NCBI GenBank assembly: GCA_030430995.1
Contig: JAUIKA010000001.1
Span: 1 to 49,082, forward strand
DNA from: Alphaproteobacteria bacterium
GTDB lineage: Bacteria > Pseudomonadota > Alphaproteobacteria > Rickettsiales > Rickettsiaceae
Reading direction: 5' to 3'
DNA: 49,082 nt
Under the pieces are notes generated by a model. It was not told the DNA's origin. It was given only the letters and a program-made list of their open reading frames with translations, and ran no database searches. Positions 4,304-44,760 of the stretch are shown here, piece by piece; the stretch's first letter is position 1, and each line of letters begins with the position of its first letter. The position numbers and the translations under genes are program-made.

Positions 4304-4319
4304 TAACAATACAAGAAAC

Positions 4320-5015: not shown

Positions 5016-5690
5016 CTAGTAATTTTTTACTAAAATCAATAATATTAAATGTCCTGTAAATAACAGCAATGAGTTCCTTGATAAAATTCTCATTTTACCA
5101 GGATATATCTGCCTTTGCATATTACGTCCTACAAGTAGTAGATATAATACTACAAACATACAAATGTTAGCAATAATATAATTGATATCCCACCTAAACC
5201 TTAAATAGGCGTATATAGTAGATGCCGCTAAAGCTATAAACAGCTCTAGGTATTCTTGGCTGCCTAGCCTTTGCATTTTTGCTTTATGGCCTATAACCAT
5301 AAAGCAAAAAGGTAAACAAGTATACTCTAGCGGAAAAGGATCTATAAAGATAGAAGGCAACATCAGCCAAAAGCTTATTGATCTTATAAGTAGTTTTAAA
5401 TCTGCCCATAAAAGCAATTGTCCTAGAAAAAGAGAAAACAATATATTTAGCTGCCCAGGCAATAATAATTGTAATATTACTCCGCAAAGTAATATCCATT
5501 TGTTAATGCGCCTGTAGTTATAGCCGCGAAAATAAGCAAATATAGGCATAGCGGGCCTTCCTAAAAGCCTGAATATCATTTGATCAGGAAAGAAGAACAG
5601 CCCTATATGATCAATTGCTGCCAATAGCAGAGCTATCGCTTTTAGTAGGTCCTGGAAGTTCGACTTCTTCCCTACTGATAAATCTATCAT
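5016..5690 (-). CDS. traX: TraX-like polytopic membrane protein (F-pilin acetylase family)
   Basis: 224 aa and very hydrophobic. The N-terminal LLKAIALLLAAIDHIGLFFFP resembles the TraX K.iA...M.iDH motif. It lies immediately downstream of traD and overlaps the traD 3' end by 80 nt. Confidence 0.55.
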   Translation of the reverse strand: MIDLSVGKKSNFQDLLKAIALLLAAIDHIGLFFFPDQMIFRLLGRPAMPIFAYFRGYNYRRINKWILLCGVILQLLLPGQLNILFSLFLGQLLLWADLKLLIRSISFWLMLPSIFIDPFPLEYTCLPFCFMVIGHKAKMQRLGSQEYLELFIALAASTIYAYLRFRWDINYIIANICMFVVLYLLLVGRNMQRQIYPGKMRILSRNSLLLFTGHLILLILVKNY

Positions 5691-14246: not shown

Positions 14247-16088
14247 TCACTCTTGTTTTTTTATTGGATAATTATCATGGTAATTTTCACTCTCGCTGCC
14301 TTTTCCGGTTGTGCCAAATCTTTCATGCATCTGACCTTTCTTACGCAACTGATGAGCACTTGGCCTATTCATCTGTGATGGCTTATTGCCATGAATAGCT
14401 TTTCCATCTTTATTTCCTGAGGGAAGATGTTTTTGTAATCTCTTCTGAGAATAATCAGGATTTTCTTTTGGAAATTTTCTCTTCTTATATTTTATAGCAC
14501 CTCTCTCATCTTCCTTGGCTTTATGGGTAAATTCAGGAAAAGCTTCACTAAAATCTATCTTAGTAAAATCTATCTTCATTAGCTCTTCTATAGTAAGACC
14601 GCCACAATCTGGATTTTTAGGATCTCCCCAACCTTTACCTAATTGCTTCCTACCCTCTACCTGTATTATCTTATGCAGCACTTCAGGAAAGCAGCAAAAT
14701 TTCTTATGTGAGCCTGACTTTATTCCGATCCTTCTTTTTATTACTTTCCCTACATAGTAACAACGCTTTCTCTCTCTTTGGCTAGCCAAATGCTCCTCAT
14801 CTTTTGTGCAGCTATTTCCTACCAGCTTGCCCCATCCTCCTTTGAGTTTTATATTTTCTTTTCTGCAGTCTTTTGACATCCCTTTAATTTGGCAGCAATT
14901 CTTAAATCCCAGAGCTCCCATTCTGCAAGTCTGCACTGTGCCAGGAAACAGCCTAACATTCTCTAAATCTTTTCCTTGAGTATGTTGAGCTATTTTAAGT
15001 TTACTTACTGAATCTGGCATATCTTTATCTTTATCCCAATGCGGATTATGGCAAATCCCCTCCATGCACGGAAAAACACTACATTTAATCGCTCCAGGGA
15101 TAGATAAATCATCATTGGTTGAGATATATTTAGGACGCATAACTTTATATGTATCCTCCCCAGTTTTACATGAATATTCACGCAAAACATTCACGCAGTT
15201 GCCCTCACCATCATATAAAATACATTCCCTGTCTTGAATAAAAAGGCAGTCTTGCCTATATTCAAATCTTCCGCAATCATCTTTAGATGGATAATCACAA
15301 GTTTTGGTATATCCATATTGCCAGCAATCTCTTGTTACCCTCACGCCCTCTATAATCCTTTCTTGTCTGCCTTGAGTGCATGTCTTTCTACTATCGAAGC
15401 AACGATAAACATTTTCCTTTGGCTCATAAGAAAACCTAGAACTTGCTGAATAATCTATCACTAGCTCATACCCTCCAAAATATCCAGCAGCTACTAAAAT
15501 ATCTATTCTTATTTTATTATTCTCCATCAAAGGCTTTAGATTTACCCCCAAAGAAGCACTGCCGATTCTCCCTGTTTGAACAGGGATCATCTCACCATTT
15601 TTCTCAATCGCTCTATAATAATCAAATGGCTCATCTGTCATTACCTCATCACATCTCTCTTGCCCCCATTTAAAATCCTCACTTCCTACAGATGTAAAAA
15701 TTACTCTATCGCTAGCCTTAATAATTGCATGATCCTTATATTTTATCGATCTGAGATTTATGCTACCGACACCATCTACAATCTCTATTGTCACTGAATT
15801 TTTGAACTCCCTGCCCTCTCTTGCATATAAAAAGTTGCAGCTGCTACCAGTTCCCGATCCATCGTCTCTTTCTTCGCACCTGCCGATGATAATCCTTTTA
15901 TTCTCTTTATCATGAGCAATTTTGATATCACTAGAAGCAGAGATCTTTACATAGTCCTGTTTTACCTTCTCCCTGAACCTAGTATTTCCTTGCTCTTTAA
16001 TTGGACGTGAATCATACGCCCCTCCCTTGGCAAAGCTTTGAGAAATCAGCGTCATAGATAATAAGATCAACACTACTCTACCAATCAT
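14247..16088 (-). CDS. traN: F-type TraN (Cys-rich outer-membrane mating-pair stabilisation protein)
   Basis: Signal peptide MIGRVVLILLSMTLISQSFA and a Cys-rich core (..CFDSRKTCTQG..DCWQYGYTKTCDYPSKDDC..DCLFIQDRECI..GNCV..YSC..). The ATG at 16088 is preferred over the GTG at 16094 because of the AGAGGGTGAG SD. Confidence 0.85.
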   Translation of the reverse strand: MIGRVVLILLSMTLISQSFAKGGAYDSRPIKEQGNTRFREKVKQDYVKISASSDIKIAHDKENKRIIIGRCEERDDGSGTGSSCNFLYAREGREFKNSVTIEIVDGVGSINLRSIKYKDHAIIKASDRVIFTSVGSEDFKWGQERCDEVMTDEPFDYYRAIEKNGEMIPVQTGRIGSASLGVNLKPLMENNKIRIDILVAAGYFGGYELVIDYSASSRFSYEPKENVYRCFDSRKTCTQGRQERIIEGVRVTRDCWQYGYTKTCDYPSKDDCGRFEYRQDCLFIQDRECILYDGEGNCVNVLREYSCKTGEDTYKVMRPKYISTNDDLSIPGAIKCSVFPCMEGICHNPHWDKDKDMPDSVSKLKIAQHTQGKDLENVRLFPGTVQTCRMGALGFKNCCQIKGMSKDCRKENIKLKGGWGKLVGNSCTKDEEHLASQRERKRCYYVGKVIKRRIGIKSGSHKKFCCFPEVLHKIIQVEGRKQLGKGWGDPKNPDCGGLTIEELMKIDFTKIDFSEAFPEFTHKAKEDERGAIKYKKRKFPKENPDYSQKRLQKHLPSGNKDGKAIHGNKPSQMNRPSAHQLRKKGQMHERFGTTGKGSESENYHDNYPIKKQE

Positions 16089-17496
16089 GCTCACCCTCTT
16101 TTGCCCACTCTATCTCCTCATCTGGCCTTTGGCTGCCTCCAGATGTTCTCTCTGTAATGTCTCCTGTTTTTTTTAAAGTAGTCCTCTCGTTCCAAACTGG
16201 ATCTGACCACTGCAAACAAATCCTCTCAAATGATTTAATCCCAGCTGATAAATATGCCCCATCAATAGATATACTTCTGATAACTATACTATTTCTACCT
16301 AGTTTTAAATATGGTCTTATATCTATCTTAGCAATTTTATTATAACTCCTAGGCTGCCTATACCCCTCATCTCTTCCATGATATGTAGTATCTTCACCTA
16401 CAAGATATGTACGGCTTCCAGTACTGACCCTAGGTAATACCTCATGTTCGCGGCGACGAACTATTACACCAAAACTTACTTTTACAAAATATTTATACTC
16501 AGACTCGCTGTTTAAATCAGTTAAACTCGAACCTCCATAAGGCCCTACAAAAACATTCTGACCATTAACTGAAACACTGACAAACTGCTTATACTCCAGA
16601 TCATAAATACTGAACTCTGCAAAAACCCTAGGATCTTTCTTGACATCAAGCTCCAAAGTTATATCTTTTGTATATTTTGTATGAGTTCTAAAAAATTCAT
16701 TCCCAAACCAACCTCTTCTATTGGTGGATTCCCTTTTATTATAATTCCCTGATTTATCATCTATGGTAAATGTAAATATACCGTTATTAAGCTTATGAGG
16801 TATATTGCTACTGAGTAATCTGACATCTTCCCGCGTACTACTAAATCTTCTGCAATGGATCTCTAAATCTTCAAATGCATCATAAGTATTGAATAATTTT
16901 TCACAAAAAAACGTCTCGGGAATAGGCTCTTTCACTTCTTTTTCCTCCCATCCCATTACAAATGGGTCATCCCTTAAATGGCTTTTCCCTTCAAAGGTTA
17001 CGCAGTCAAAATCTATCCCCTCATTCTTTAGCTTATCAAGCTCAGCCATAATACCTTTTTGGTATATTTTAGTAGCCTCTTCTAGCGCTTTATCTACTTC
17101 TCTTAGATTATTAGCTACTGCTGGATTATTCTCATCTGTCGAATCCTGCATTACCCTTAGAGCCTGAGCTGCATCACTTTTGCCTGATGCTATTTTTCTT
17201 CCCTGATCAGCCATAACGCTCTCGTCCTCAGGAGGGGAAAAATTTTCGGCATCAGCTTTGGTAATTTTTTGAGCCTCTTTACCTTCTCCTTCCTGCCTGT
17301 ATAACTCTATATCAGGATTATCTACCGGAGCATTTACTTCACCGTTTTTCTCTTGAACAGATAATGGCTTCTGCCAATTCTCAAGACCGTCTGCCTTCTG
17401 ACTGTGATCCCAGATGCGTTTAAACTCCTCCTTGTCATAGCCAGCGAAAACAAAACTGCTACATATTAATCCCAAAATACAGATAATCTTAGCCAA
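16078..17496 (-). CDS. Hypothetical secreted protein (non-canonical member of the tra operon)
   Basis: The track ORF (482 aa) starts at a TTG at 17526. A TTG at 17496, preceded by GGGAGG, gives the clean signal peptide MAKIICILGLICSSFVFAG. I recognise no family. It overlaps the upstream gene stop and the traN start. Confidence 0.55.
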   Translation of the reverse strand: MAKIICILGLICSSFVFAGYDKEEFKRIWDHSQKADGLENWQKPLSVQEKNGEVNAPVDNPDIELYRQEGEGKEAQKITKADAENFSPPEDESVMADQGRKIASGKSDAAQALRVMQDSTDENNPAVANNLREVDKALEEATKIYQKGIMAELDKLKNEGIDFDCVTFEGKSHLRDDPFVMGWEEKEVKEPIPETFFCEKLFNTYDAFEDLEIHCRRFSSTREDVRLLSSNIPHKLNNGIFTFTIDDKSGNYNKRESTNRRGWFGNEFFRTHTKYTKDITLELDVKKDPRVFAEFSIYDLEYKQFVSVSVNGQNVFVGPYGGSSLTDLNSESEYKYFVKVSFGVIVRRREHEVLPRVSTGSRTYLVGEDTTYHGRDEGYRQPRSYNKIAKIDIRPYLKLGRNSIVIRSISIDGAYLSAGIKSFERICLQWSDPVWNERTTLKKTGDITERTSGGSQRPDEEIEWAKEGEHDW

Positions 17497-18652
17497 AATT
17501 GCTACCTCCCTTGCCGAAATCACCAAATCCCCAAGCTGAAAAATCTAACTGATCCATATCTTCTTGATTATGCAAAAATGCTCCCATTAGCTTTGATGGG
17601 TCTTCTCCTAAACCACCCAATCCCATCATTTCACGTGCAAATTCTTGGCCCTGTGTAAATTGCTGCTGAAATTGATCAGTTTGATGCACTCTTTCAAATT
17701 CTTCTACCATCTCAGTCACTGCTTGCGGAGGATGTTTTGCTAAAGCTTCCTTATGCTGAGCAAGCCCAAATCCATATATCTCTTCCGCGCTGGCAGTAAG
17801 CAGTGATGGCATGCTATATTTCTCTGCTAAAAATTCCCTTTTTTCTTTTAAATAGTTATGATCCCAATCATCTAGCATCAACCATTGAGGCAACCTTGTC
17901 TCAGCTCCTAGGTCTAATTTCTCTTCTGGGGTGATAGATGGCCTCAAATGAATAGGTATCTCACTAGTATTTTCAGGCAAAATAATAAAAATATGACGAT
18001 CTATCTCTTTAAAATCCTCTAATAATCCTTCAGGGTCACTGAATACTGGATAGCTCTGCCCCTCTTTTGGTTCACGCAGCTCTAATTTTGTTAGAACTCT
18101 AGATAATGGGACATTTTTTTCTTTAGCAACTTCTGCCTTGCTGGTTAAAGGACGATAAACTAGTTTTGCTTCTTCCTTTGTTACAAAAAATCTAAGAAAA
18201 GTACTTGAAGCAAGTATTGTATTGAGAGAAGAATACTCCTCTTTTGTATATAGCTCAGTAAAATCTCTTTGTCCTCCTGCTATCTTATATACTTCATTAA
18301 CAAAACATACACAATCATTTGAAAATGGGAAATATGAACCAGATGGTCCTCTTTCGATATATTCCCTTATCTTTTCGTACTGTGTTTGGTTTATCTCTAA
18401 AATTTTTGTAGTTAAAACCTTATTTCCACTACTTTTTTGATATTCAACAGCTCTATCATATCTTACTTTCTCATCTCTATAATCAACAGGCCATAACATT
18501 ACTTTTTTGTTTACCCCTCTAAAAATACTCTCACCCTTATTGCCGGCAAGCTCTATGTAGACATGCCCTGGAGACGAAAGATCTTTTTCCCATTTTGCTG
18601 TATCACTGTTATAGGTTACTTTTACATCATGATGAATTTTTAATTGAAACAT
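17489..18652 (-). CDS. Hypothetical protein with N-terminal His..Cys (permuted papain-like?) domain; founder of a 3-copy family in this window
   Basis: 387 aa. It reads MFQLKIHHD...SPGHVYIEL...QTQYEKIREYI...FSNDCVCFVNEVY. It has a GAGGT SD and a Gly-rich C-terminal tail. Paralogues lie at 47661-48449 and 46233-46469. Confidence 0.6.
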   Translation of the reverse strand: MFQLKIHHDVKVTYNSDTAKWEKDLSSPGHVYIELAGNKGESIFRGVNKKVMLWPVDYRDEKVRYDRAVEYQKSSGNKVLTTKILEINQTQYEKIREYIERGPSGSYFPFSNDCVCFVNEVYKIAGGQRDFTELYTKEEYSSLNTILASSTFLRFFVTKEEAKLVYRPLTSKAEVAKEKNVPLSRVLTKLELREPKEGQSYPVFSDPEGLLEDFKEIDRHIFIILPENTSEIPIHLRPSITPEEKLDLGAETRLPQWLMLDDWDHNYLKEKREFLAEKYSMPSLLTASAEEIYGFGLAQHKEALAKHPPQAVTEMVEEFERVHQTDQFQQQFTQGQEFAREMMGLGGLGEDPSKLMGAFLHNQEDMDQLDFSAWGFGDFGKGGSNFG

Positions 18653-29395: not shown

Positions 29396-31915
29396 TTAAT
29401 TCTCTTGAGAAAAAGAGTTACTATTAGCTGGCCTGTTTAATTTTGTAATTAGGATTTCACCATACTTTCCTTTCTTATTTATTTCATACGCAAATTCTTG
29501 CTGATCTAAAAATTTAAAGACCCCCTCCCAATTTAGTAAGTAGGTATTCAAAAATCTCTCTCCTTTAGAAAACTCTAAAATTTCTTTTTTTGAAAAAATA
29601 TACCCCTTATAACGAAGACAGATCTGTATTTCATTATCCTTATTATAAAAATCTATATAAATAACGCTAGAATCGATAGCTAAATTAACTACATTGGTGA
29701 CTATACTGAATAGTATTTGATATGTCAGAGGCTTAGGCAGCGGGAAATCCTCTATGGTTTTTAGAAAATTAATTTTCTGTTTTTTTTGTTTCAATTTTAT
29801 ATCAACAAATGACTTTATCTCTTCCAAGAGAATCTCTAGATCTTGTTTTGAAGTGCTCGCTGAATACCCATGAATAAAGTTGCTTTGAACCATTTTTTGC
29901 ATTACATAATATCTCTCTACTATTGAGAAAAATTTCTCTTCGATATTGGTTTTTTTGGTGATAATATTTAATGGGATATTCCCATTTAAGTCACTCTTTT
30001 GATAATTTCTATACTGGGGAAAAAGTGTATTCCCGCGCCTAAAAAAAAGCAATATAAAAAATCCTAATAGTAAGCACCCTATGTAATAGGGTAAATATTG
30101 GAAATTTATTTTTAAATCTGGAACATATGCAGAATTGAAAGCTGCTACTAATAAAATAACAAGCACTGTTATTCTAATTAATTGAAACAGGTTAATAAAA
30201 AATAAAAAATTCGATAAAAAGATTATTCCAAAAGGAATTATATAAATTCGCGAAAGATTTACCCCCTCTATTATTAAAATTGAAGTGAAAATATTTATAA
30301 AAAGGGTTAGTTTCCAATACAAATCAAGATTCTTTATAAACTTAATCCAATATTCATAAAAAACTAACATTAGGTTTATACTCAATGTGACATAAATTAC
30401 TATTTCTAATACCTTGTCTTCCTTAATAAAAAAAATTAGAACAGGGCTATAGGATAAAAAACTTACCACTAATAAAAGCGGGAATTTCCCTTTCTCCAAG
30501 ACGGAAGGAAAAAAGCTTTGCTTATTTAAATACCCCATTAAAAGGGGTAAGTAATTTTTTTTACTATCAAAACTTAACATTAAGTGCGATACAACAAATG
30601 TAGTGAAACTAGCTATTATTCCTATCAACGCACTAAAAGAAGAAAATTTTCCATCATAAAAAGCTGCAACATTTGTTGCTATCACAGCACCTATTAAAGC
30701 TATATGAAATGTGGCCTTATTAGTTTTTATTCCTAAAAAACCTAAAATTAATGGGACGAGAATTATTGGATGAGAAAAGTTAGATACAAAAAATACTATA
30801 TCATGTATTTTATAATTTTTTAATGCAATTGGTAATACTGTAAACCCAACAAATAACCCCACTCCTCTTAAAATTAATAAATTACCATTAAAATTTGGGA
30901 ACACCTTATATATAAAATCTTTTGCTATGATTACACTTGTAGTGTTTAAATATGAATCTGCTGTTGACATAATAACTGCCAAGATACTACAAATCATTAC
31001 TCCTGTCAGCCCTATTCCTAGATTTTTAGAGGCAAAATCTAAAAGTTCCAAATTTTGATTTGTATCAGTTATTTGTATCCTTGATAAAAATCCTATAATG
31101 ATAATTACAACATAGAATACAACAGATAAAGCACCGGTTATACAAAAAGATTTTAATATATTTTCTTTTTTTTTCTGCATCAGAACTCTTTGGATAAAAG
31201 GAGCTTCACAAGGAATAAAGTATAGTAACATTCCTAGCATAATAAAAATATCATTGCTTGTAATTTTTATATGGCAACAGTCTCTCTTTATTTTATTTAC
31301 AAATATTTGTATGCCACCTACATTTTCTATTCCTTTAAGGCAAACTAATGGAAATACAATGAAGAATATAAAAAACTGTAGTACATCTGTAAGTGCAACC
31401 GATTGGATGCCTCCGACTACAGAGTAGATTGTAAAAATAAAAACACAAATTACTGCCCCATGAACATAATTTATCCCGAAATAATTTGATATATTTGCTA
31501 AAGCCGTAACTTGAACAGAAAGAAACCCTATAGACGTAATTATCACTGAAGTGCTTACTATAACTTTAGCAGTAGTCCCATAAAACTTCTCTATAATATC
31601 TGGCAAAGTTAAACAATCTTTTAAATTTGCTTTTCTAGAATATATATACCCTGAAAGCAACCAACTCAATGGTTTTAATAATGTAGCTAATATATATGCA
31701 ACATTTAAGGCATAAACACTACCCACTCCCCCCATTGTAGTACTAGAGCTAATCCCTGTAGCAAATAATGTACCTACCATCACCGTATTAGAGAAGTTGC
31801 CTTTTCCAAGTGTATATTCTTCTACTGTTTTTACTTTGTTATACTTATAAAATCCTATTATTAGGCATAATAATAAATACCCCAAAACAATAGAAATATC
31901 TAAATATTCATACAT
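29396..31915 (-). CDS. Sodium:solute symporter (SSF) domain fused to extra TM segments and a about 200-aa cytoplasmic domain of uncertain (GHKL-like?) fold
   Basis: 839 aa. The N-terminal about 470 aa are SSF-like (..GNFSNTVMVGTLFATGISSSTTMGG.., ..GGIQSVALTDVLQFFIF..). The C-terminus has a weak N-box-like NVVNLAID but no G1/G2 boxes that I can see. Confidence 0.6.
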   Translation of the reverse strand: MYEYLDISIVLGYLLLCLIIGFYKYNKVKTVEEYTLGKGNFSNTVMVGTLFATGISSSTTMGGVGSVYALNVAYILATLLKPLSWLLSGYIYSRKANLKDCLTLPDIIEKFYGTTAKVIVSTSVIITSIGFLSVQVTALANISNYFGINYVHGAVICVFIFTIYSVVGGIQSVALTDVLQFFIFFIVFPLVCLKGIENVGGIQIFVNKIKRDCCHIKITSNDIFIMLGMLLYFIPCEAPFIQRVLMQKKKENILKSFCITGALSVVFYVVIIIIGFLSRIQITDTNQNLELLDFASKNLGIGLTGVMICSILAVIMSTADSYLNTTSVIIAKDFIYKVFPNFNGNLLILRGVGLFVGFTVLPIALKNYKIHDIVFFVSNFSHPIILVPLILGFLGIKTNKATFHIALIGAVIATNVAAFYDGKFSSFSALIGIIASFTTFVVSHLMLSFDSKKNYLPLLMGYLNKQSFFPSVLEKGKFPLLLVVSFLSYSPVLIFFIKEDKVLEIVIYVTLSINLMLVFYEYWIKFIKNLDLYWKLTLFINIFTSILIIEGVNLSRIYIIPFGIIFLSNFLFFINLFQLIRITVLVILLVAAFNSAYVPDLKINFQYLPYYIGCLLLGFFILLFFRRGNTLFPQYRNYQKSDLNGNIPLNIITKKTNIEEKFFSIVERYYVMQKMVQSNFIHGYSASTSKQDLEILLEEIKSFVDIKLKQKKQKINFLKTIEDFPLPKPLTYQILFSIVTNVVNLAIDSSVIYIDFYNKDNEIQICLRYKGYIFSKKEILEFSKGERFLNTYLLNWEGVFKFLDQQEFAYEINKKGKYGEILITKLNRPANSNSFSQEN

Positions 31916-35588: not shown

Positions 35589-36122
35589 ATGTATCAAGGG
35601 AATCAAATAACAACTTTTCAGTTAAAAGGGGCTAGATACGCGTTAGATATAACTACAAAGGAATTGGGGGAATATATTCAATTTAGCTCAACAACTATTT
35701 CAACCCTTGAAAGAAAAGGGTTATCGGAGTTTGTAGATATTGATAGAAAAAAAATTAACCTTTTAGTAAGATTTTTTAATGATAAAGGAATACATTTTCC
35801 AGATCAATATTCTATTTTAAACAACAAGATACAAGATATAGAAAAGGATGTGCTTACTAGGTTTCAAATTCGTTCATCAAGAAAAATTCTTAATATCACA
35901 CAAAAACTATTAGCAGAAAAAATTTCTATTGAAGTCAATATTCTTAATGCTTTAGAGCGACTAAATAATACATCAATTATTGCAAAAAAAAATTTACAAG
36001 AAACTAATAAGTTTATTGATTATAATAATCTTATAGATTTTTTTAAAGGAAAAAATATCTTATTTCTCCATAATAATACAATATGCAATAACCATCAAAC
36101 CCCCTTTCCCAGTCCAAAGTGA
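35589..36122 (+). CDS. Protein with two XRE-type HTH repeats
   Basis: The start is placed at the ATG at 35589 (MYQGNQ..), 4 nt after the RHH gene stop. ..LKGARYALDITTKELGEYIQFSSTTISTLERKG.. and ..IRSSRKILNITQKLLAEKISIEVNILNALER.. are the two HTH repeats. The 3' end overlaps the relaxase 3' end by 28 nt (convergent). Confidence 0.55.
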   Translation: MYQGNQITTFQLKGARYALDITTKELGEYIQFSSTTISTLERKGLSEFVDIDRKKINLLVRFFNDKGIHFPDQYSILNNKIQDIEKDVLTRFQIRSSRKILNITQKLLAEKISIEVNILNALERLNNTSIIAKKNLQETNKFIDYNNLIDFFKGKNILFLHNNTICNNHQTPFPSPK

Positions 36123-39100
36123 TGTCCATGAGATATCTCTTGAGCTTGTTCGTGGTGATGCTGCAGCCCTTTTTCTAAAAGGTGGTGATCATGATGCTGA
36201 GCTAGTTGTGTATATTTACCTATAATGTCTCGTGGATCATGATCATGCAACATATTGTGCCCTACATTCATATGCTCATGATGTTGGTGATGATTATCAC
36301 GATCATGCTCCATCATTCTTCTAGCTTCTAATCTTGCTAGATGCTCTAGATGAGGATCAAATCTTTTATTTATCCCAAATCTATCACATCCATATTTCTT
36401 TAAACTTTCCTGCCTATATTTTTCTACTCTCTCTGGTTTGAATAACTCATAACTATATGCCTTTTCTGATATATCTTTTATAGCCATTTGCCTTTGCTCA
36501 TCTGTAAATATTTTAGCGCTTATTTGAACTGCGTGGACCATACCAAGCTCTTTTGCTGCAGAGGCTATAAATCCGTCTATCATTTCTGATGTTATTGGAG
36601 TCCCTTTTGTTAGATTATGATCTAGGATGTTTTCAGCGAAATAGGTTCTAACTCGCTCATCTGCGTGTATTTGAGTTGGGATCCTTTTAGTTAGGTCGTC
36701 TAGCTTTTCTTTATACTGATCCCTTGATAGGCCATATCTTAAAGATAAATATTTATCATAACTTTTCTCTGGATCTTTGACGTCTATTTCTTTAAAAAGC
36801 TTAGATAATTCTTTTTCATAACCTTGGTTGTCCCAGTCTGGAGTAGGCCCTTTATCTATAGATTTCTGAGCTATATCTAAAGCTATATTTATAGTTTCTT
36901 TCTGAGTTAAATTATCTTTTTTATCCATTAGGGCAGTCAGCAGTTCTGTATCCTCTAGTTTATTAGCTTCTTTTACAAAACAAGATACTTTATAACTCTC
37001 TCTTAATTCAGCTAATGGTATCTCTCTATTTTCTCCTAAAAGCTCATGTTTTTTATTCTCAATGGTAAAAAACTCTTTTAAAACAGTTGAAGTCTCTTGA
37101 GCTTTTTCTAGATCTAGCATAGTTTGCCTCTCAAGCTGAAGAGTTTTTTCATCTAATATCTTTAAGCCATCAACCTTCTCTAAAAACAGCTCCTGAATTT
37201 TCTCAGCCCCTTCTTCTTTTAGCATATCATTAAAGTCAGTATTTGCTTTCTCTGGCATCACTACAGATATTTTAGCTCCTGCTTTTTCTATAGCTTCTAT
37301 GGTCGTCTCTATAATCTTACTAATAGTTTTACTATCTCCATCATTATCTAAGGCCAAAATAATATGCTCATTTTCCTTTGGTTGATAGTTTTTGATATTG
37401 CTTATTCCAAGAGAGCATTTGATATTAGCATCAAGCCCTGCTTCTTTTATAGATAGGGCTGTCTCTAATCCTTCTGCTATAATAGTCTTATTTGAGCTCA
37501 AGGACTCCCCAGCGCTGACAAAAGCCCCCTTTATCTGCCCATAAGAACGTTTAGTTTCTTTCTCAGCAGTGAAAGCATTTAATATAATTCCTTGATGCCC
37601 TGTTATATTATTATTACCGTCTCTGGCAAAACAGACTAGGGCAGGGCATCTTTGCCCTATATGCACTACAGTAGTAGCTTTTATATCATCGCTTAAACCA
37701 CAAGTGATACCTCTATGATTTGCTAAATAAACGCTAGCAGCTTGAGCTACTAAGTTAGGTTTGATATCTTTGGCTTTAAGATTATTATATTTATCCCAAA
37801 CTTCTTTATGATTAGCCTTAAGATAAGCTGATTTATATATTTCTCCGGCATAAGCGGTGGCGTGAGCTTTGTTGTACACATAGCTACTTGCAGATATCAT
37901 CTTAGTCAGCAATTTTCCTCCTCCTGCTATAGAGCATCCCTGCATAATAGCACCTCTTCTATCACCTATCTCTTGCCTGATTTCAAATTTTTTCGTATCC
38001 AGCTGCTTCTGAGGTGATTTTAAAGACTCCTGAAGTTTGTTTATATTATGCAGCTCTTTTCTAAAATTATTAGGCTCTTTTGAGCTAAAATACTCTTTTC
38101 CGGCTTTCATGATTTGCTCTTGGAATAATATTGCACCTTTAGTATTTGTAAATACTCCTTTTGGATCAGGCAAGTGAGATTTAACTCCTCCTGATAATAT
38201 CTCAATCTGGTCTCTTGCTCCTGGCCGAATAGCGGCAGAGAGATTTACTAGATCTTCCATAGATCTAGGTTGCAGCTTTTGGCAATATTTACCGCTGGAG
38301 CCAAGCTGAAACACCCCAGCAACATTTCCAGATGAGATTAATTCAAAAGTCTTTTGATCATGGTGGGGTAGGGCGCTTATGCCCGCCTGCCTCATCATCA
38401 TATCAGTTTTTGCTAAATGATTAGATGAGAGCAAGTCCAATTTATGTTCAGGCTCCTTTATTAGCCCTTTATTTACTACTCCGCCAATGCCAATGCTGCA
38501 AATATGAGGTTCGCCATTTTTATCTAAAACTCTTCCTCCAGAGTATTTGTTTAATATATATTTTTCTACTAAATCTCTATGCCTACTATCTATATCAAAG
38601 TCAAAATCAGGTCTGTTATCAGGAGATAAAAATCTCTCCTGCATAAGTCCTTGTCGCTCTATATCGTTATTATGTAGCCCTAATGCTTTGGCGGCAATAG
38701 AGCTATTAGCAGAGCCCCTGAGCAGATAAGAGATATTGTTAAACTGGCAGAAATTTTTAATATCATGAGCAATTAAAAAATCTCTAGCATATCCATTTTC
38801 TTTAATGATATGCAGTTCTTTTTCTAATTTACTATATGGTATATCTTTAGTATATTGAGGCTTGAAAGCTAAACTTCGCAATGTCTGATATGGACTGCTA
38901 TTATTTAAATTGTAACCGCTGGCTCTAGAGAAATTATGTTCTTCCTTGATTTCAATACTACTGCCTCTATTATATAACTGGCGGCTTCTATTAGTTTTTG
39001 CTTTTTTATTATCTATAGCAGCCACATCAAGCTTAAGTTTATCTTTAAATGCAGAGATATCATGAGAGATATCCGCCCCACTATCTTTAGTCATCTGTTT

Positions 39101-41833
39101 TAGATAAATAGCAGATTCTTTTATCCCTATCTCTTTATGCTCAGATACAAAAGAGAGCATATCACCACCTTTGCCTGTAGAGTGATCATACCATAGACCT
39201 GACTTAGGCCCGGAAGTAGTAACTATAATTTTGCCATTTTCCCCATACCGGAGCATAGACCCATTCGATAAGATCTCATTAGGAGCTCCTAAAATTGATA
39301 AAGCTATCTTTTCAGCAGCAAAAGCAGCATCTCTTTTTATTCTAGCAAAATCTAGGTGGTTAGAGCTTTTTGTTGATTTGTCGCTAAAATGCTCAATATT
39401 ATCTTCCCATCCGCTAAGCTTAGCTACTTTAAATACCTGCCTTCTATCTAGAGTATCCTCTATAAATCTATAGTAATTCTCATCACTATTGATATTATCA
39501 TTCCAGTACATTTTCAGCTTAAACTTAAGATCACTAAACCTTCCTTTTTTTTGAGTTAAATCTTCATGAGTAAAATAAGACAAACTTGCTGCATTATTTT
39601 GTGGAGCGGATAGCTGAGCGGTAAGCGCTTCTATATCAGGAGTTTTAGAAGTATCGGCATAGATTTTTAGGCCTATTACATGGCGAGTCATCTGAACATA
39701 GCTATTATTTATAGTGGAAAACCCACTATGAAGCACAAAAACACAGCCTAAAGAAGCCCCTTGAGATTTATAAACAGTAGAAGCATAACCATGCTTTATA
39801 TGGTGGAAATAATAAGGATTAAATTCAACTTCTCTGCCATCATCTATTTTTACTCTAATAGAGACAAATCTATTAGTATCAGTAGCATCCCCATTGCTTT
39901 TGATTTCTAATATGCGGCCAAATTCACTATTATAAACTCCAATAGATCTATTTGTTTTAGTAAATACAATCCGATCCCCTTCAGCAAAAGGGAGCTTTTG
40001 ATAGCCGATTTGCCAATCATCTTTTCCTAGCTTTCCGGCTTGCTTTAGCCTATGCCGAGCCATTTCATTTAAATGATCAACATCTTTATTAGCAATAGCT
40101 AATATCTGACGCTTTTGTAGGTCAAAAGGACTATTTTCCCAGTGACCTATGAGCTTCATCTTTGAGTCATAATCAGTATTTGAAAAATGTACATCTTCTT
40201 CAAATATCTTCAAAGCTTTCATCACTTGAGATTTAGCCATAAGTTCAGCTGCATGCCTATGCTTCTCTGATTTTTGCCTATGAACTTCAGTTAGCTCAAA
40301 AGATCCAAATTTATCAGCTAAAACCTCAAACATTCCGCCACGAGAGATAGAGGATAGTTGCCTCTCATCTCCAGCTAAGATTAAAGAGCAATCAATTTTA
40401 TCTAGTAGTTTCAATAGCTCCCTATAGGTAGGAGTAGATACCATAGCAGCTTCATCTATGATAATAGTATTAATATTCTCTAGATCGGCTTTGCCGACTC
40501 TAGCCTTCCAAAGGAAGCTATCTATGGTAAAGCTATTTTCAAATCCTTTTTCCTTCAGTTCAATTGAAGCTTTATGCGTAGGAGCTAAAGCTGTTATCTC
40601 TTTAGAGGCAAGTTTAGAAAGTACGGTTGATTTGCCAGTTCCAGCCCTGCCTTTTAAAATCTTTAATGCTCCATCTTTTTTTGAGGTTAAAAACTCTAGA
40701 GCATCTCTTTGGTGATCAGACAAATTTTCTATATCTTTAAAGGCAAACTGTTTTACTTCCACAGTAGAGTTAAGAAGACCTGCTCGATATAAAACTCTTT
40801 GCTCTTCAACTCTAACCTCTTTAGTAGTAAAAAAATCAGTCTTAGTTCCATCCGCTAAATATAAAGGAATCATCCTAGAAGAAGCCATAGCCTCTTTAAC
40901 CAGAGAAAACCTCACGGAAGAGTCAATCATGTGCTTAACAGCTCTTTTAAGCTCATACTCGCTAAATACAGATTTAGTACTAGTGACTCTATCAAGCACG
41001 CTATCGCCATCTTTTAAAATCTCTAGATTAGCTTCATGAATTACCTCGTTTTTAGAGATATTTTTATTTTCAGCAGATCTCATACGCCGAGGCCCTATAT
41101 GAATGGAGCCTAAATCAGCAGTAGGATCTACACGCAAAGCTAGGCCTTTTTCAATGAAATATTCGTTTTGGATATCTCTAGATATCTGCCCAATAATTCT
41201 ATTTTCAGGAATAGCAAAAGCTTTGCCAGAAGACTTATAAAACTCAGGATTAAGATCAGTAGCTTTTTTTGCTTCCAGAGCCTCTCCATCCTCTCTAAAT
41301 CTGCGAGTCGTAACCAAAAGATGAGCATGCCAATTATGGTCTCCATCATGAGGGCTGTGGATGTCTAATTGCACAGCTAGACCCTCCCGGACATATCCCA
41401 TGTGATCAATAATTCTTTTAGTGATCTCTATTCGGTCCTCTAAGATAATCTCTCTGTCATCAGGCAGGGCAATCACGATATCTTTCAGGACCTGAGAGTC
41501 TTTTCTTTTCTCATGAGACTCTACTAAGTTCATCAAAAGCTCAGGATCTTTATAAGCCTTATTAGCATGAGAAGGCAGCAAGACTTCATGATAAGCATTA
41601 TCGCCCCGATTAGAGAAGTCAAAAGTTCGATTAGCTCTACTATCTTTTACTCGCACTCTAGCATTATAAGCGGCCTTCAAACAGCTATTACCTCCGCTGG
41701 ATCTAGATACCATTTCAATACGTGCAAACTGGATAGCCACTAATTTATCTATTTTAAGCTTGTTTATTATAAAAGAGGAGAAAACCATACCTTCTTGAAC
41801 CAGTATAACATTTCTAATGTTGCTAGGCAACAT
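36095..41833 (-). CDS. traA_Ti: Multidomain relaxase: MobA/MobL (MOBQ, TraA_Ti-like) + RecD-like helicase + Cys-less primase helper domain + DnaE-like polymerase core + Toprim + helical region + His-rich tail
   Basis: Relaxase: VAIQFARIEMVSRSSGG..LKAAYNAR.. and HSPHDGDHNWHAHLLVTTR (about 41100-41740). Helicase: GRAGTGKST, IIIDEAAMV, YASTVYKSQGASL (about 39700-40750). Helper domain: about 39100-39305. DnaE-like: 37796-38827. Toprim: YLANHRGI...IIAEGLETALS...LALDNDGD (about 37230-37745). The start codon is uncertain (an internal Met/GTG nearer to MAIqf.. is possible). Confidence 0.85.
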   Translation of the reverse strand: MLPSNIRNVILVQEGMVFSSFIINKLKIDKLVAIQFARIEMVSRSSGGNSCLKAAYNARVRVKDSRANRTFDFSNRGDNAYHEVLLPSHANKAYKDPELLMNLVESHEKRKDSQVLKDIVIALPDDREIILEDRIEITKRIIDHMGYVREGLAVQLDIHSPHDGDHNWHAHLLVTTRRFREDGEALEAKKATDLNPEFYKSSGKAFAIPENRIIGQISRDIQNEYFIEKGLALRVDPTADLGSIHIGPRRMRSAENKNISKNEVIHEANLEILKDGDSVLDRVTSTKSVFSEYELKRAVKHMIDSSVRFSLVKEAMASSRMIPLYLADGTKTDFFTTKEVRVEEQRVLYRAGLLNSTVEVKQFAFKDIENLSDHQRDALEFLTSKKDGALKILKGRAGTGKSTVLSKLASKEITALAPTHKASIELKEKGFENSFTIDSFLWKARVGKADLENINTIIIDEAAMVSTPTYRELLKLLDKIDCSLILAGDERQLSSISRGGMFEVLADKFGSFELTEVHRQKSEKHRHAAELMAKSQVMKALKIFEEDVHFSNTDYDSKMKLIGHWENSPFDLQKRQILAIANKDVDHLNEMARHRLKQAGKLGKDDWQIGYQKLPFAEGDRIVFTKTNRSIGVYNSEFGRILEIKSNGDATDTNRFVSIRVKIDDGREVEFNPYYFHHIKHGYASTVYKSQGASLGCVFVLHSGFSTINNSYVQMTRHVIGLKIYADTSKTPDIEALTAQLSAPQNNAASLSYFTHEDLTQKKGRFSDLKFKLKMYWNDNINSDENYYRFIEDTLDRRQVFKVAKLSGWEDNIEHFSDKSTKSSNHLDFARIKRDAAFAAEKIALSILGAPNEILSNGSMLRYGENGKIIVTTSGPKSGLWYDHSTGKGGDMLSFVSEHKEIGIKESAIYLKQMTKDSGADISHDISAFKDKLKLDVAAIDNKKAKTNRSRQLYNRGSSIEIKEEHNFSRASGYNLNNSSPYQTLRSLAFKPQYTKDIPYSKLEKELHIIKENGYARDFLIAHDIKNFCQFNNISYLLRGSANSSIAAKALGLHNNDIERQGLMQERFLSPDNRPDFDFDIDSRHRDLVEKYILNKYSGGRVLDKNGEPHICSIGIGGVVNKGLIKEPEHKLDLLSSNHLAKTDMMMRQAGISALPHHDQKTFELISSGNVAGVFQLGSSGKYCQKLQPRSMEDLVNLSAAIRPGARDQIEILSGGVKSHLPDPKGVFTNTKGAILFQEQIMKAGKEYFSSKEPNNFRKELHNINKLQESLKSPQKQLDTKKFEIRQEIGDRRGAIMQGCSIAGGGKLLTKMISASSYVYNKAHATAYAGEIYKSAYLKANHKEVWDKYNNLKAKDIKPNLVAQAASVYLANHRGITCGLSDDIKATTVVHIGQRCPALVCFARDGNNNITGHQGIILNAFTAEKETKRSYGQIKGAFVSAGESLSSNKTIIAEGLETALSIKEAGLDANIKCSLGISNIKNYQPKENEHIILALDNDGDSKTISKIIETTIEAIEKAGAKISVVMPEKANTDFNDMLKEEGAEKIQELFLEKVDGLKILDEKTLQLERQTMLDLEKAQETSTVLKEFFTIENKKHELLGENREIPLAELRESYKVSCFVKEANKLEDTELLTALMDKKDNLTQKETINIALDIAQKSIDKGPTPDWDNQGYEKELSKLFKEIDVKDPEKSYDKYLSLRYGLSRDQYKEKLDDLTKRIPTQIHADERVRTYFAENILDHNLTKGTPITSEMIDGFIASAAKELGMVHAVQISAKIFTDEQRQMAIKDISEKAYSYELFKPERVEKYRQESLKKYGCDRFGINKRFDPHLEHLARLEARRMMEHDRDNHHQHHEHMNVGHNMLHDHDPRDIIGKYTQLAQHHDHHLLEKGLQHHHEQAQEISHGHHFGLGKGV

Positions 41834-41952: not shown

Positions 41953-41991
41953 TATTATGATATTCTTTAGGGGTAAAAGAATATCATAATA
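41953..41991. promoter_or_regulatory. Perfect 16-bp inverted repeat with 7-nt loop; candidate oriT hairpin and/or operator
   Basis: TATTATGATATTCTTT (41953-41968), AGGGGTA, AAAGAATATCATAATA (41976-41991). It lies in the divergent region between the relaxase gene and the TraD_Ti-containing operon, 17 nt before the ATG at 42009. Confidence 0.45.
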
Positions 41992-42008: not shown

Positions 42009-43265
42009 ATGAATCTAATAGAAAAATCTAAAGCAAATGCAGATAGCATAAATAGAGATATATATTCACCCTTAGCATTAGAATCAAAAGAGCAGCAAAT
42101 GCTAAAATCTCCAGATAATTTCTCTGCTGAAGATAAACAGCCCCTAATAGATAAATTAAAATCCTATAAGGATAAATATTGGATAGAGTGTTCTTGCAAA
42201 GGAGTGCTCATAATATGTCAGCAAAAAGATAATCTATATATCAGATGTAAGGCTAAAGATGAGCATAAAAAAGATTGCTGGTTTTACAAAAGAGCTTCTG
42301 TAAATCTAAATGGCAATGCAAAAGAAGGGACTAGAGCACAAGTAAAATATTTTACTCCGAGTGTTGCTGCAGGTAGCATTTTATCTAGCAGTAAGTCTAC
42401 TGGAGCATTAAAGAGCAAAAGAATCTCTAAATTGGGCCAGCTGCTATTGTCTATTTTAGATAAATCAGGGGTCAATAAAATAAAAGATAAACAGCTGCCA
42501 ATTATCGATCAACTTAGATCTATTACAGGCAGTTTTAATAAGCTTTGGCCCAGCAAGGAGCTTAGAAAAAAAGATATCACTTTATCTAAATTTTATCGAT
42601 ATAGCCTCACTAAAGAATTATTAAAAGAATCATATAGATCTCTAATATATCAAAAGCATTTTTTACCAAAATCAGTAGAGCCTTTTTTGATTTTCTCATT
42701 AGTAGCAACTAAAATTACAGATAATAGCTTTACTGCAAAAAAAAATGGTGAAGAATATTTTGTAGCCAGCCGGCCAGAGACTATCTCAGGCTTTATCGAT
42801 AGAGAAAAGTCAGCTCCTTATTTTACCCTAGCGCTAGCTCAATTAAAAGAAGATTATAAATTTTATATCCATAGCGAGAAGCTAGAGTTTAAAGAAGTTT
42901 TTGCAATCCCTATTTACTCCAGCTCTATTTTAATGCCAGTAGAGAGCGCTTATGAAAGGCAAGCACTCAGAATATTACTTGACCAGCATAGAGCAAATCA
43001 ATATTTTATAGACAAGCCTTTATTCCCGGTAGCATATAAATCTTCTACAGAAGAAGAGATAATGCATAGGCCAGATTTTATACTTACAAGAGGGGATAAA
43101 ACTATCTTTATAGAAGTATTAGGCAGCAAAAATCCAGATTACCAAGCTCATAAAGAAAGCATAGCAGCGAGAGTCTCAGGGTATATCTGTGTAGAGGGAT
43201 ATAATTTAGACAGCCCAGAGACAAGGCATAATTTTATAAATAACATAAAAAAATACTTATCATGA
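42009..43265 (+). CDS. Hypothetical protein: N-terminal Cys/His cluster plus C-terminal PD-(D/E)xK-like motif (DUF1173-like?)
   Basis: 418 aa. ..YWIECSCKGVLIICQQKDNLYIRCKAKDEHKKDCWFYK.. and C-terminal ..HRPDFILTRGDKTIFIEVLGSK.. are present. The family assignment is from memory only. Confidence 0.4.
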   Translation: MNLIEKSKANADSINRDIYSPLALESKEQQMLKSPDNFSAEDKQPLIDKLKSYKDKYWIECSCKGVLIICQQKDNLYIRCKAKDEHKKDCWFYKRASVNLNGNAKEGTRAQVKYFTPSVAAGSILSSSKSTGALKSKRISKLGQLLLSILDKSGVNKIKDKQLPIIDQLRSITGSFNKLWPSKELRKKDITLSKFYRYSLTKELLKESYRSLIYQKHFLPKSVEPFLIFSLVATKITDNSFTAKKNGEEYFVASRPETISGFIDREKSAPYFTLALAQLKEDYKFYIHSEKLEFKEVFAIPIYSSSILMPVESAYERQALRILLDQHRANQYFIDKPLFPVAYKSSTEEEIMHRPDFILTRGDKTIFIEVLGSKNPDYQAHKESIAARVSGYICVEGYNLDSPETRHNFINNIKKYLS

Positions 43266-43723
43266 CAGTTTTAGAGAAAGAGAAGCAGCAGATTAAGCGC
43301 CAATCAGCAGAGCTTAGAAGGCGCCAAGTGCAGCTGAAGCTAAAAGAGCAGAAGCTCAGAGACCGCCATCTATATGAGATGGGCAGGTCAGCCAAAAAAG
43401 CTGGCATTGACGCCCTTGAAGATGAAGAATTTTTAGGGGCGATGCTATATTTAAGAGAACTGATTGATAAAGACAGCTCCCTACTAAAACTTTTCAGAGA
43501 AAAAGCACAGAAGCATATAGAGCAAGAGAATAAAGGAAAAACAGCTATAGTGCTCACCATAGGCTACAAAGATGCACAGTCTAATAAAGCAATCCTGAGA
43601 AAACATAGCCTCAAATGGAATCAACTCAGGAAAGAATGGTATGGTTATGTAGAGGATCTAGAAGGGCTGAAAGTTGATCTAAAGAGCGCAGAGCATAGTA
43701 TAGAAATCATAAAAGAGGATTAA
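43262..43723 (+). CDS. traD_Ti: TraD_Ti-like conjugal transfer protein with extra C-terminal domain
   Basis: 153 aa. ..LRDRHLYEMGRSAKKAGIDALEDEEFLGAMLYL.. resembles Ti-plasmid TraD (..lGglv.kAGl....llGall). The C-terminal ..VLTIGYKDAQSNKAILRKHSLKWNQLRKEWYGYV resembles the 'VPf.eKdeaK.lGA.Wd...K.WY' module seen on some plasmid primases and anti-restriction proteins. There is an ATGA overlap with the upstream gene. Confidence 0.55.
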   Translation: MTVLEKEKQQIKRQSAELRRRQVQLKLKEQKLRDRHLYEMGRSAKKAGIDALEDEEFLGAMLYLRELIDKDSSLLKLFREKAQKHIEQENKGKTAIVLTIGYKDAQSNKAILRKHSLKWNQLRKEWYGYVEDLEGLKVDLKSAEHSIEIIKED

Positions 43724-44760
43724 TGACAATAGAGCCTGAATATAAATCTTTCTTAGAGGAGATTAAGCAAAGAGTAGCAAGTAGTCGCTATAGAGCAGCT
43801 TTATCTGTAAATAAAGAGCTAATATTGTCCTATCACCATATAGGCAGACAGATCCTTCTTGCTCAACATAAGCATAGTTGGGGAAGTAAAGTGATAGATA
43901 ATCTCAGCAAAGACCTGAAATCTGCTTTTCCTGATATGAAAGGGTTTAGCCATCAGAATCTTAAATATATGAGAAAATTTGCAAGCGAATATACGAATGA
44001 AGAAATTAGTCAACAGCTTGTTGACCAATTACCTTGGGGTCATATAACAGTATTACTTTACCGCCTTGATAGTAAAGAAGAGAGAGGTTTTTACATCTGT
44101 CAGATAATCAACAATACTTGGTCCAGAAAAAAACTCCAGGACCAGATAGGAAAATCTTTACATTTAAGGCAAGCCAAAGCGGTGACGAATTTTGATTTAA
44201 AATTACCATCTCCTCAATCTGACTTAGCTAAAAATACTCTAAAGGATCCATATTCATTTGATTTTTTAGGTTTAGGAAAAGATGCTAATGAGAGAGAAAT
44301 AGAAAAAGCATTAGTAGATCATGTAGAAAAGTTTTTGCTAGAGCTTGGAGAAGGTTTTGCATTTATGGGGAGGCAATATCATTTAAAAATATCAGATAAT
44401 AATTATTTTTTGGATTTGCTATTCTATCACGTCAAGCTTAGATGTTATGTTGTAGTAGAATTAAAAAACACAGCATTTAAACCAGAATATGCAGGCAAGC
44501 TCAATTTTTATCTATCTGCAGTAGATGACCTGCTACGCCATCCAGATGATAAGCCATCTATAGGTCTTATTCTATGTAGATCCAAAGATAATGTTTTAGC
44601 TGAATATGCACTTAGAGACATGACAAAGCCAATAGGGCTTGCAGATTATAGTTTAACTAAGATATTGCCAGAGAATCTAAAAACAGCTCTTCCTACAATA
44701 GAGGAAATTGAGGAGGAGATGGATGAAATAGCAAAAAAAGAGGGCAAAGATGATAGATAG
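43723..44760 (+). CDS. YhcG/DUF1016-family PD-(D/E)xK nuclease-fold protein
   Basis: 345 aa. YKSFLEEIKQRVASSRYRAALSVNKELILSYHHIGRQIL...WGSKVIDNLSKDLKSAFPDMKGFSHQNLKYMRKFA.. and ..YFLDLLFYHVKLRCYVVVELK.. are present. Confidence 0.8.
   Translation: MTIEPEYKSFLEEIKQRVASSRYRAALSVNKELILSYHHIGRQILLAQHKHSWGSKVIDNLSKDLKSAFPDMKGFSHQNLKYMRKFASEYTNEEISQQLVDQLPWGHITVLLYRLDSKEERGFYICQIINNTWSRKKLQDQIGKSLHLRQAKAVTNFDLKLPSPQSDLAKNTLKDPYSFDFLGLGKDANEREIEKALVDHVEKFLLELGEGFAFMGRQYHLKISDNNYFLDLLFYHVKLRCYVVVELKNTAFKPEYAGKLNFYLSAVDDLLRHPDDKPSIGLILCRSKDNVLAEYALRDMTKPIGLADYSLTKILPENLKTALPTIEEIEEEMDEIAKKEGKDDR

Follow-up and report, generated by a model that had tools for sequence, protein, structure and literature searches.

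A C-family DNA polymerase core nested in the predicted primase region of a Rickettsiales TraA-type relaxase

The polymerase module and its host protein

Here, we analyzed a 49,082-nucleotide (nt) stretch of a Rickettsiaceae genome (contig JAUIKA010000001.1; hereafter the window), in which a traA-like gene encodes a conjugative relaxase-helicase that carries, nested in its predicted primase region, a module homologous to the palm and fingers of the bacterial replicative polymerase Pol III alpha. The gene occupies a single open reading frame (ORF) of 1912 codons on the minus strand (36095-41833) with no interruption, as had been noted in a preliminary description made from the sequence, and the motifs quoted there were all found in their places (PDFDFDID at nt 38588-38611, LEKELH... 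from nt 38827, and an identical translation of 37796-38827). The parts of the gene and of its protein of 1912 amino acids (aa) are as follows.

36095..41833, minus strand: traA-like gene, 1912 aa, in the order relaxase, helicase, primase helper, nested polymerase core, DUF7146/Toprim primase (predicted) and His-rich tail
41267..41680, minus strand: MOBQ relaxase domain, MobA_MobL (PF03389), aa 52-189 (Pfam, 3e-28)
40193..40723, minus strand: RecD/TraA-type superfamily 1 helicase core, AAA_30, aa 371-547, with Walker A motif GRAGTGKS (Pfam, 1e-35)
39146..39253, minus strand: Cys-less, beta-rich helper domain, aa 861-896, LRYGENGK...GGDMLSFV (alignment and AlphaFold2 model)
38957..38980, minus strand: first DUF7146 helix, QLYNRGSS, aa 952-959 (alignment with the TraA proteins P0059 and P0112)
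38414..38881, minus strand: polymerase palm, aa 985-1140 (Pfam, AlphaFold2 model, alignment with E. coli DnaE, residue mapping)
37766..38413, minus strand: polymerase fingers, aa 1141-1356, with FQL, RPG and ILFQEQIM (Pfam, AlphaFold2 model, Foldseek, alignment with E. coli DnaE)
37517..37744, minus strand: rest of DUF7146, aa 1364-1439, YLANHRGI... (Pfam, E 0.0018, profile positions 20-103 of 105)
37202..37486, minus strand: Toprim_3, aa 1450-1544 (Pfam, 7e-14)
36098..37153, minus strand: poorly conserved C-terminal tail, aa 1561-1912 (per-domain identity)

The polymerase module spans aa 985-1356 (nt 37766-38881), slightly wider than the 37796-38827 first delimited. Pfam detected DNA_pol3_alpha (PF07733) at aa 995-1102 (4e-18, 66 bits against a cutoff of 23.9, profile positions 19-129 of 260) and DNA_pol3_finger (PF17657) at aa 1150-1268 (9e-18, 65 bits against a cutoff of 22), with PF07733 lying between the Toprim-associated domains of a protein that also matches MobA_MobL and AAA_30. 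The NCBIfam DnaE models match the module in two stretches, down to 1e-40, with a best score of 139-141 bits that is far under all DnaE and PolC cutoffs (434-1806). A phmmer search against PDB sequences returned the Pol III alpha subunits of Taq, Mycobacterium tuberculosis and E. coli, with E-values from 7e-25 (Taq) to 1e-15. Structural comparison led to the same family: an AlphaFold2 model of aa 983-1356, for which four fusion modules and 30 DnaE fragments were aligned, reached a mean predicted local distance difference test score (pLDDT) of 93.4 and a predicted template modeling score (pTM) of 0.90, and its only significant Foldseek matches in the PDB were C-family polymerases (E 1.7e-16 to 2.4e-7), namely those of Taq (2HPI, 4IQJ, 3E0D), M. 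tuberculosis (7PU7, 5LEW) and E. coli (2HNH, 5FKW), and PolC (3F2B), onto which the model superposes with query-normalized template modeling (TM) scores of 0.63-0.75. CCA-adding enzymes and TUTases ranked below the polymerases as weak matches (E above 0.3). The similarity of the module to Pol III alpha is far beyond chance, and the Pfam, NCBIfam, modeling and residue-mapping results agree with the preliminary description in placing an in-frame C-family palm/fingers core between the helper domain and the Toprim domain of a MOBQ relaxase-helicase.

Alignment with DnaE of E. coli MG1655 (residues of which are marked Ec) revealed that the module starts at about Ec 315 and ends at about Ec 780, where, in the Taq structure, the fingers give way to the beta-binding domain. 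In place of the thumb (Ec 433-510), which has been deleted, there is a hairpin of about 12 residues. PHP, HhH/beta-binding and OB domains were not detected by Pfam in the 1912-aa protein (no PF02811, PF14579 or PF01336), in line with the earlier claim that PHP, thumb, beta-binding and OB regions are missing, and a motif search revealed no conserved clamp-binding motif in the modules. The module is palm and fingers only, cut out cleanly at domain borders.

Within these borders, the residues that line the active site of Pol III alpha were readily mapped. R1039, G1040 and S1041 (the RGS motif) correspond to Ec R362, G363 and S364, R1067 to Ec R390, the aspartates D1076, D1078 and D1080 to Ec D401, D403 and D405, and K1131 and D1133 to Ec K553 and D555. 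In the fingers, R1258 and K1259 correspond to Ec R709 and R710 (the latter present as Lys), and N1321, K1322 and H1324 to Ec N757, K758 and H760; R362, R390 and R709 are triphosphate ligands in the Pol III structures. The palm also holds H1110, an equivalent of Ec H511 is present, and those of Ec R639-P-G and Y764 are kept as well. All active-site residues that were checked, including the three Asp residues, the GS motif and the steric-gate His, are retained, and judged on these aligned residues, the active site of the window module is intact. In E. coli, the catalytic triad consists of D401, D403 and D555, and ribonucleotides are kept out by H760, the steric gate (PMC8485763). Retention of the H760 equivalent (H1324) points to the use of deoxynucleoside triphosphates (dNTPs), that is, to DNA rather than RNA synthesis.

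The surroundings of the module were examined in an alignment of six proteins, comprising the window protein, three relatives with the same fusion, and the TraA proteins of Rickettsia (P0059) and Candidatus (Ca.) Megaera (P0112). Relaxase, helicase, helper, DUF7146 and Toprim_3 are colinear in all six, and the module of about 370 residues is present in the four fusions only. Across the alignment, the catalytic Tyr of the relaxase (Y56) and its His triad (H162, H169 and H171, the last two forming the HxH motif) are invariant, as are the catalytic Glu (E1454) and the DxD pair D1496/D1498 of the Toprim domain. The NCBIfam TraA_Ti model TIGR02768 matches aa 32-754 (3e-119, profile positions 1-743 of 751) with a score of 399 bits, below the equivalog cutoff of 590, and on this sequence comparison, the protein is best classified as a divergent Rickettsiales-type relative of TraA_Ti, not as an Agrobacterium-type equivalog.

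The insertion point lies between an 'LYxRS' helix and a 'YLxxHRGI' helix, the first and second helices of DUF7146. In P0059, the Pfam match to DUF7146 covers profile positions 7-104 and includes both helices, whereas in the window protein only positions 20-103, after the insertion, are matched. Since both helices fall inside DUF7146 in P0059, the polymerase is nested in the first loop of this domain. Upstream, the helper domain, for which Pfam gave no match, carries invariant residues (G867, G875, W881, Y882, G889, G890 and D891) and is conserved in all Rickettsia-type TraA proteins. It contains no Cys or His ligands at aa 861-896 and thus does not qualify as a Cys4 or Cys3His zinc-binding domain. 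In an AlphaFold2 model of aa 836-1600 (pLDDT 87.1, pTM 0.68), the helper domain folds as four strands plus helices with pLDDT >90. After Pol III, the best PDB matches of this model were the catalytic domain of Pseudomonas DnaG (5VAZ, E 1e-3, probability 1.0) and T4 gp61 (8DVF_H, E 0.02). These fold matches support reading the flanks of the module as a predicted DnaG-like Toprim primase region.

Conservation and relatives of the module

A search with the full-length protein covered 5.8 billion clusters, and among the 120 TraA relatives listed, PF07733 and PF17657 occur, besides the query, only in P0046, P0047 and P0048. These are metagenomic proteins, of which P0046 and P0047 are 57% and 39% identical to the window protein. 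Per-domain identity was used as the measure of constraint because the pair formed by the window and the L002 locus (57% identity) is saturated. Against P0046, P0047 and P0048, respectively, identity amounts to 58, 46 and 40% in the palm and 59, 40 and 42% in the fingers, compared with 60, 42 and 40% in the helicase and 49, 46 and 41% in Toprim; the linker that precedes the module (32, 14 and 18%) and the C-terminal tail (17, 12 and 14%) are far lower. The module is therefore as constrained as the domains of known function. The frame also stays open in close variants of P0046. Together with the clear insertion relative to the Rickettsia and Megaera TraA proteins and the active-site residues kept in relaxase-linked relatives, this helicase- and Toprim-level conservation supports the earlier argument against a random dnaE scrap. 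A 95%-identical variant of P0046 in the L003 locus (1397-5854) starts at the equivalent of aa 341, with an Endonuc-like_C gene and traD upstream, and is probably a decaying copy.

Outside this group, the closest named plasmid relatives in the relaxase-helicase part come from Ca. Megaera polyxenophila (41% identity) and a Rickettsia endosymbiont (38%). In PLSDB, 1274 plasmids encode a TraA relative, of which none covers at least 80% of the query and none has the module, and a tblastn search of PLSDB with the module returned ordinary dnaE genes only (about 30% identity). A pattern scan of the genome contigs of 185,579 species representatives revealed no relative, a scan of metagenome contigs gave at least four distant matches (25-27% identity), and BFVD contained full-size phage DnaE polymerases only, with no compact equivalent. 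Homolog searches with the 344-aa segment and with a 13-module profile returned proteins of at most about 800 aa, nearly all of them DnaE fragments; these lists missed even the window's own protein and are uninformative on fusions.

A profile of four modules was then searched against 1.84 billion representatives of 50% identity clusters, and about 13 thumb-less modules are present among the top 150 matches listed. After the three clusters of the profile's own members, the matches that run in a single stretch without the thumb gap were P0165-P0172 and P0180; ordinary DnaE proteins came next, in two stretches. According to Pfam, P0167, P0171 and P0172 follow the order MobA_MobL-AAA_30-...-Toprim-polymerase, with AAA_30-Toprim-polymerase in P0170, Toprim-polymerase in P0169 and AAA_30-polymerase in P0168. 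In nine cases, a Toprim domain is found no more than about 100-150 aa from the thumb-less module, and where these proteins are complete, they also have relaxase and helicase domains. Two arrangements can be distinguished: in type 1, to which the window belongs, Toprim lies about 100 aa downstream of the polymerase (four proteins), and in type 2 it lies about 100-150 aa upstream (five proteins). That primase and polymerase are always neighbors, in either order, is the strongest contextual argument for their functional coupling. The architecture is not unique to the window but recurs in about nine relaxase-type clusters.

A neighbor-joining tree, calculated from 371 shared columns of the thumb-less modules, 25 DnaE sequences and P0173, split the thumb-less modules from DnaE and P0173 in 100 of 100 bootstraps. 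Type 1 together with P0165 and P0166 forms a clade in 98 of 100. This separate clade suggests that the thumb-less form arose once, and in combination with the missing PHP, thumb, HhH and OB domains and the scores below the family cutoffs, it places the module outside DnaE1, DnaE2, DnaE3 and PolC. Eleven thumb-less modules, that is, all but P0165 and P0166, keep the checked residues, with the exceptions of S364F in P0180, D405E in P0168 and G641A in P0167 (Ec numbering). Every Toprim-linked copy has all three carboxylates, the basic residues that bind the triphosphate and the His of the steric gate, at an overall identity of 30-60%.

P0165 and P0166 depart from this pattern. P0165 (Rickettsia massiliae WP_012152867, 2794 aa) has a faint OTU match and bears the UniRef name 'DNA polymerase III alpha chain'; P0166 (MEW9824912) is encoded on a plasmid of Ca. 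Symbiodolus clandestinus. Both contain the thumb-less module, relaxase, helicase and Toprim are absent from them by Pfam, and they are sister to P0047 and P0048 in 96 of 100 bootstraps. The two share seven losses at the active site, namely R362 (to I/V), R390 (V), D405 (Y/F), P640/G641, R709 (L), N757 (S) and Y764, and still have D401, D403, K553 and D555. Loss of a catalytic Asp in this pair was considered and rejected, as the changed residue is the D405 equivalent, with D401, D403 and D555 kept. The preliminary description had proposed free substitution of the catalytic Asp residues in homologs as a sign of decay; this holds neither for the relaxase-linked copies, which keep the triad, nor for the triad of these two proteins without relaxase, although the latter have lost seven other residues. 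The active site is thus degraded where the relaxase/primase context is lost and retained where it is kept, and the losses in P0165 and P0166 have the appearance of relaxed catalytic constraint. The P0165 gene (CP000683, locus L012, 10001-18385) adjoins a divergent TraD_Ti gene, that is, it sits in the traA position, and P0165 looks like a former polymerase-bearing TraA converted to another use.

Conjugative context of the gene

The window is conjugative in content throughout. A near-complete set of F-type type IV secretion system (T4SS) genes lies at 5016-28129 (TraB/TrbI-like, TraC, TraU, TrbC, TraN, TraF, TraH and TraG_N), a span that also holds the TraD coupling protein and TraX, and the set is interleaved with several ORFs that have no Pfam match (e.g. 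16078-17526 and 17489-18652). Two features lie upstream of traA:

43262..43723, plus strand: TraD_Ti-like relaxosome accessory gene (PF06412, 1.4e-6), the usual divergent partner of traA_Ti
41953..41991, no strand assigned: perfect 16-nt inverted repeat, TATTATGATATTCTTT / AAAGAATATCATAATA, with a 7-nt loop, in the 175-bp gap between traA and a divergent 418-aa ORF

The inverted repeat is a candidate oriT hairpin or operator, as judged from its sequence and position. The pairing of traA with TraD_Ti is repeated in the L003, L004, L006 and L012 loci. In the window, the 418-aa ORF (42009-43265, no Pfam match) separates the two genes; the relatives have traD directly beside traA. A gene for a YhcG/DUF1016 PD-(D/E)XK nuclease is found near the traA/traD pair both in the window (43723-44760) and in the P0047 locus (L004, 11460-12563), which suggests a conserved linkage. 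Also encoded in the window are ParA, an HTH_36 protein, GNATs and transposase-like proteins, and the window sequence has no terminal overlap. The loci of the relatives contain HU, coupling protein, Fic, ankyrin and leucine-rich repeat genes typical of intracellular bacteria.

Three further observations were made at these loci. The His-rich C-terminus of TraA (36098-36373) has 21 His in its final 92 residues (HHQHHEH, HHDHH, QHHHEQ), and P0046 ends in a similar way; this tail may bind metal or act as a secretion signal. In the type 2 locus L006 (17898-20051), the gene for relaxase, Toprim and polymerase is followed by a separate one for a RecD2-like helicase. The 839-aa protein encoded at 29396-31915 in the window matches a sodium:solute symporter domain on aa 34-395 only.

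Possible function and known systems

We give a probability of about one half to the reading that the module is a catalytically competent minimal C-family DNA polymerase core, nested in the DnaG-like primase region of a MOBQ TraA, which would extend the primers of the neighboring primase on the transferred strand. The homology, the fold, the retained active site, the conservation and the constant linkage to Toprim and relaxase are direct observations; what we infer is that the module is catalytically active, that it is coupled to the primase and that it acts in the recipient. In the proposed sequence of events, the relaxase would nick oriT and remain bound to the 5' end of the transferred strand, after which the Toprim primase of the same polypeptide would make a short primer on the single strand. 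The adjoining polymerase core would extend this primer with dNTPs over a short stretch, distributively and without proofreading, and the host replicase would then take over the primer-template junction, with the recipient as the most likely site of extension. Both functions suggested in the preliminary description, priming and extension by the relaxase itself and docking of host replisome parts, can be set against this evidence: the former fits the constant adjacency to Toprim, and the latter is disfavored, as the module is without the domains through which epsilon, beta and tau are bound and no clamp motif is conserved among the modules.

Several points weigh against catalysis of this kind. 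No C-family polymerase is known to function without a thumb or PHP domain, and N-terminal truncations of E. coli alpha are reported to abolish its activity. The family is rare, with about 13 clusters at 50% identity among the 1.84 billion representatives, as counted in the matches listed. In the sole usable close pair (L002 versus L003), the ratio of nonsynonymous to synonymous substitution rates (dN/dS) is 0.43 for the module, on 33 substitutions, which is no better than the 0.51 of Toprim, and the L003 partner copy lacks the relaxase domain and may be decaying; we give this ratio little weight because of the small number of substitutions and the relaxase loss. Finally, the fold persists in P0165 and P0166 without an intact active site, which makes a non-catalytic role possible.

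Such a role is the strongest of the alternatives, although we consider it unlikely. The module would then serve as a scaffold that binds DNA or the primer-template, positioning the primase on single-stranded DNA or passing the primer to host Pol III, with its residues kept for binding. The absence of thumb and PHP is consistent with this, as is the fact that the fold is evidently useful without catalysis in P0165 and P0166. The carboxylates, basic residues and steric-gate His are kept in every Toprim-linked copy, however, and a scaffold that hands over to the host would lack both the parts that bind epsilon, beta and tau and a conserved clamp-binding motif.

Somewhat less probable again is an active polymerase that works in the donor or in vegetative replication, extending either the 3'-OH left by nicking at oriT (replacement-strand synthesis) or the primers of a plasmid origin. 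The structure and conservation data given above also fit this possibility, the ParA and HTH_36 genes of the window indicate that the element may be a self-replicating plasmid, and the MobA-linked primase of RSF1010 also serves oriV. Translocation of TraA into the recipient is itself a prediction. Against a donor role, the linkage of the module is with relaxase and primase and not with Rep proteins, and it is established that relaxases of this class generally move with the DNA and that conjugative primases act in recipients (PMC12857230).

We regard as improbable a different kind of nucleotidyl transfer, such as untemplated addition of a tail to the transferred strand or production of a nucleotide signal. 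The palm shares its Pol-beta-like nucleotidyltransferase fold with other Pol-beta-fold enzymes, and this agrees with the weak Foldseek matches to CCA-adding enzymes and TUTases (see above). The whole fingers are kept, however, with the DnaE-specific template- and dNTP-binding motifs FQL, RPG, YQEQ.M and NK.H, and C-family polymerases are the only significant structural matches. That the module is a decaying, functionless fragment of a captured dnaE, as the wealth of gene fragments in Rickettsiales mobile elements and the loss of the relaxase domain in the close L003 variant might suggest, is effectively excluded by the intact frame in all copies, the clean excision at domain level, a conservation that equals that of helicase and Toprim and far exceeds that of the linkers, the kept active-site residues, the high-confidence fold and the recurrence of the module in two architectures.

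Returning to the catalytic reading, we tentatively propose a broader picture, which we hold to be somewhat short of an even chance. The relaxase would deliver, covalently on the incoming strand, a helicase, a DnaG-type primase and its own minimal C-family polymerase, such that the complementary strand could be started without the primase or polymerase of the recipient; the module of about 370 aa would then be the smallest C-family polymerase found in nature and would give the family a fifth branch, carried by mobile elements. If true, this would establish what the minimal catalytic unit of bacterial replicases is, and the set of proteins possibly injected by conjugative elements would come to include a polymerase. 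It would also offer a directly testable model of how a transferred single strand becomes double-stranded where the replication machinery of the host is reduced or incompatible, as in intracellular Rickettsiales-like bacteria. The feature is real, conserved and rare, and it is a new form of both a multifunctional relaxase and a C-family polymerase, with a function that comparison suggests.

Helicase and primase domains are familiar additions to relaxases. In a 2025 review of T4SS and relaxases, these two are the only extra domains named, and the word 'polymerase' is absent from its text (PMC12857230). Surveys of the C family recognize four groups, each of which has PHP, palm, thumb and fingers (PMC3919608, from 2013; PMC12926913, from 2026), and neither describes a relaxase fusion or a thumb-less form. 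DnaE is not mentioned in the survey of polyvalent proteins, and full-text searches of a literature of incomplete coverage gave nothing relevant that joins PF07733 to a relaxase. The fusion is described in no paper that we read. It recurs beyond the window, and automated databases have already tagged the domains, as in the UniRef name of the R. massiliae relative.

Among known proteins, Pol III alpha (DnaE1/2/3 and PolC; Taq 2HPI and 3E0D, E. coli 2HNH) has a homologous palm and fingers with the same catalytic and dNTP-binding residues, from which the module differs in being without PHP, thumb, HhH/beta-binding, OB and C-terminal domains and in being embedded in a relaxase. The closest host proteins are the TraA_Ti-I of Rickettsia plasmids and of the Rickettsiales amplified genetic element (RAGE), represented by P0059, and the TraA of Ca. 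Megaera, which share the MobA_MobL, AAA_30, helper, DUF7146 and Toprim_3 backbone at 36-40% identity. These proteins have no polymerase, and the window protein has about 370 extra residues within DUF7146. As in the window, the Rickettsia TraA_Ti-I is accompanied by a divergent TraD_Ti partner and an F-type T4SS, and the Orientia RAGE paper describes TraA_Ti-I with a Toprim region only (PMC10732058).

The window TraA also resembles MobA-RepB' of RSF1010/R1162, in which a MOBQ relaxase is fused to a replication-initiation enzyme. The two share the logic of bringing their own priming, but MobA-RepB' has a primase only, with neither helicase nor polymerase, and its primase fold differs from the Toprim type. 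For R1162, the relaxase-primase fusion of MobA is cited as required for conjugal establishment in the recipient (PMC12857230). In the cellular replisomes, eukaryotic Pol alpha-primase and the DnaG-to-DnaE3 hand-off of B. subtilis offer functional analogies, as each couples a primase to a polymerase that extends the primer briefly prior to hand-off (PMC5627055). CCPol-MP of SCCmec is, according to PMC7581432, a mobile-element protein related to a replicative-type polymerase that initiates DNA synthesis. Unlike the window module, it is a separate protein with no relaxase link. CCPol-MP belongs to another polymerase family, being A-family-like. The analogous cellular enzymes are separate subunits, whereas the window holds both parts in one conjugation protein with a putative coupling between them, and by this analogy, TraA would be the equivalent, in one bacterial protein chain, of Pol alpha-primase or the Bacillus DnaG-to-DnaE hand-off.

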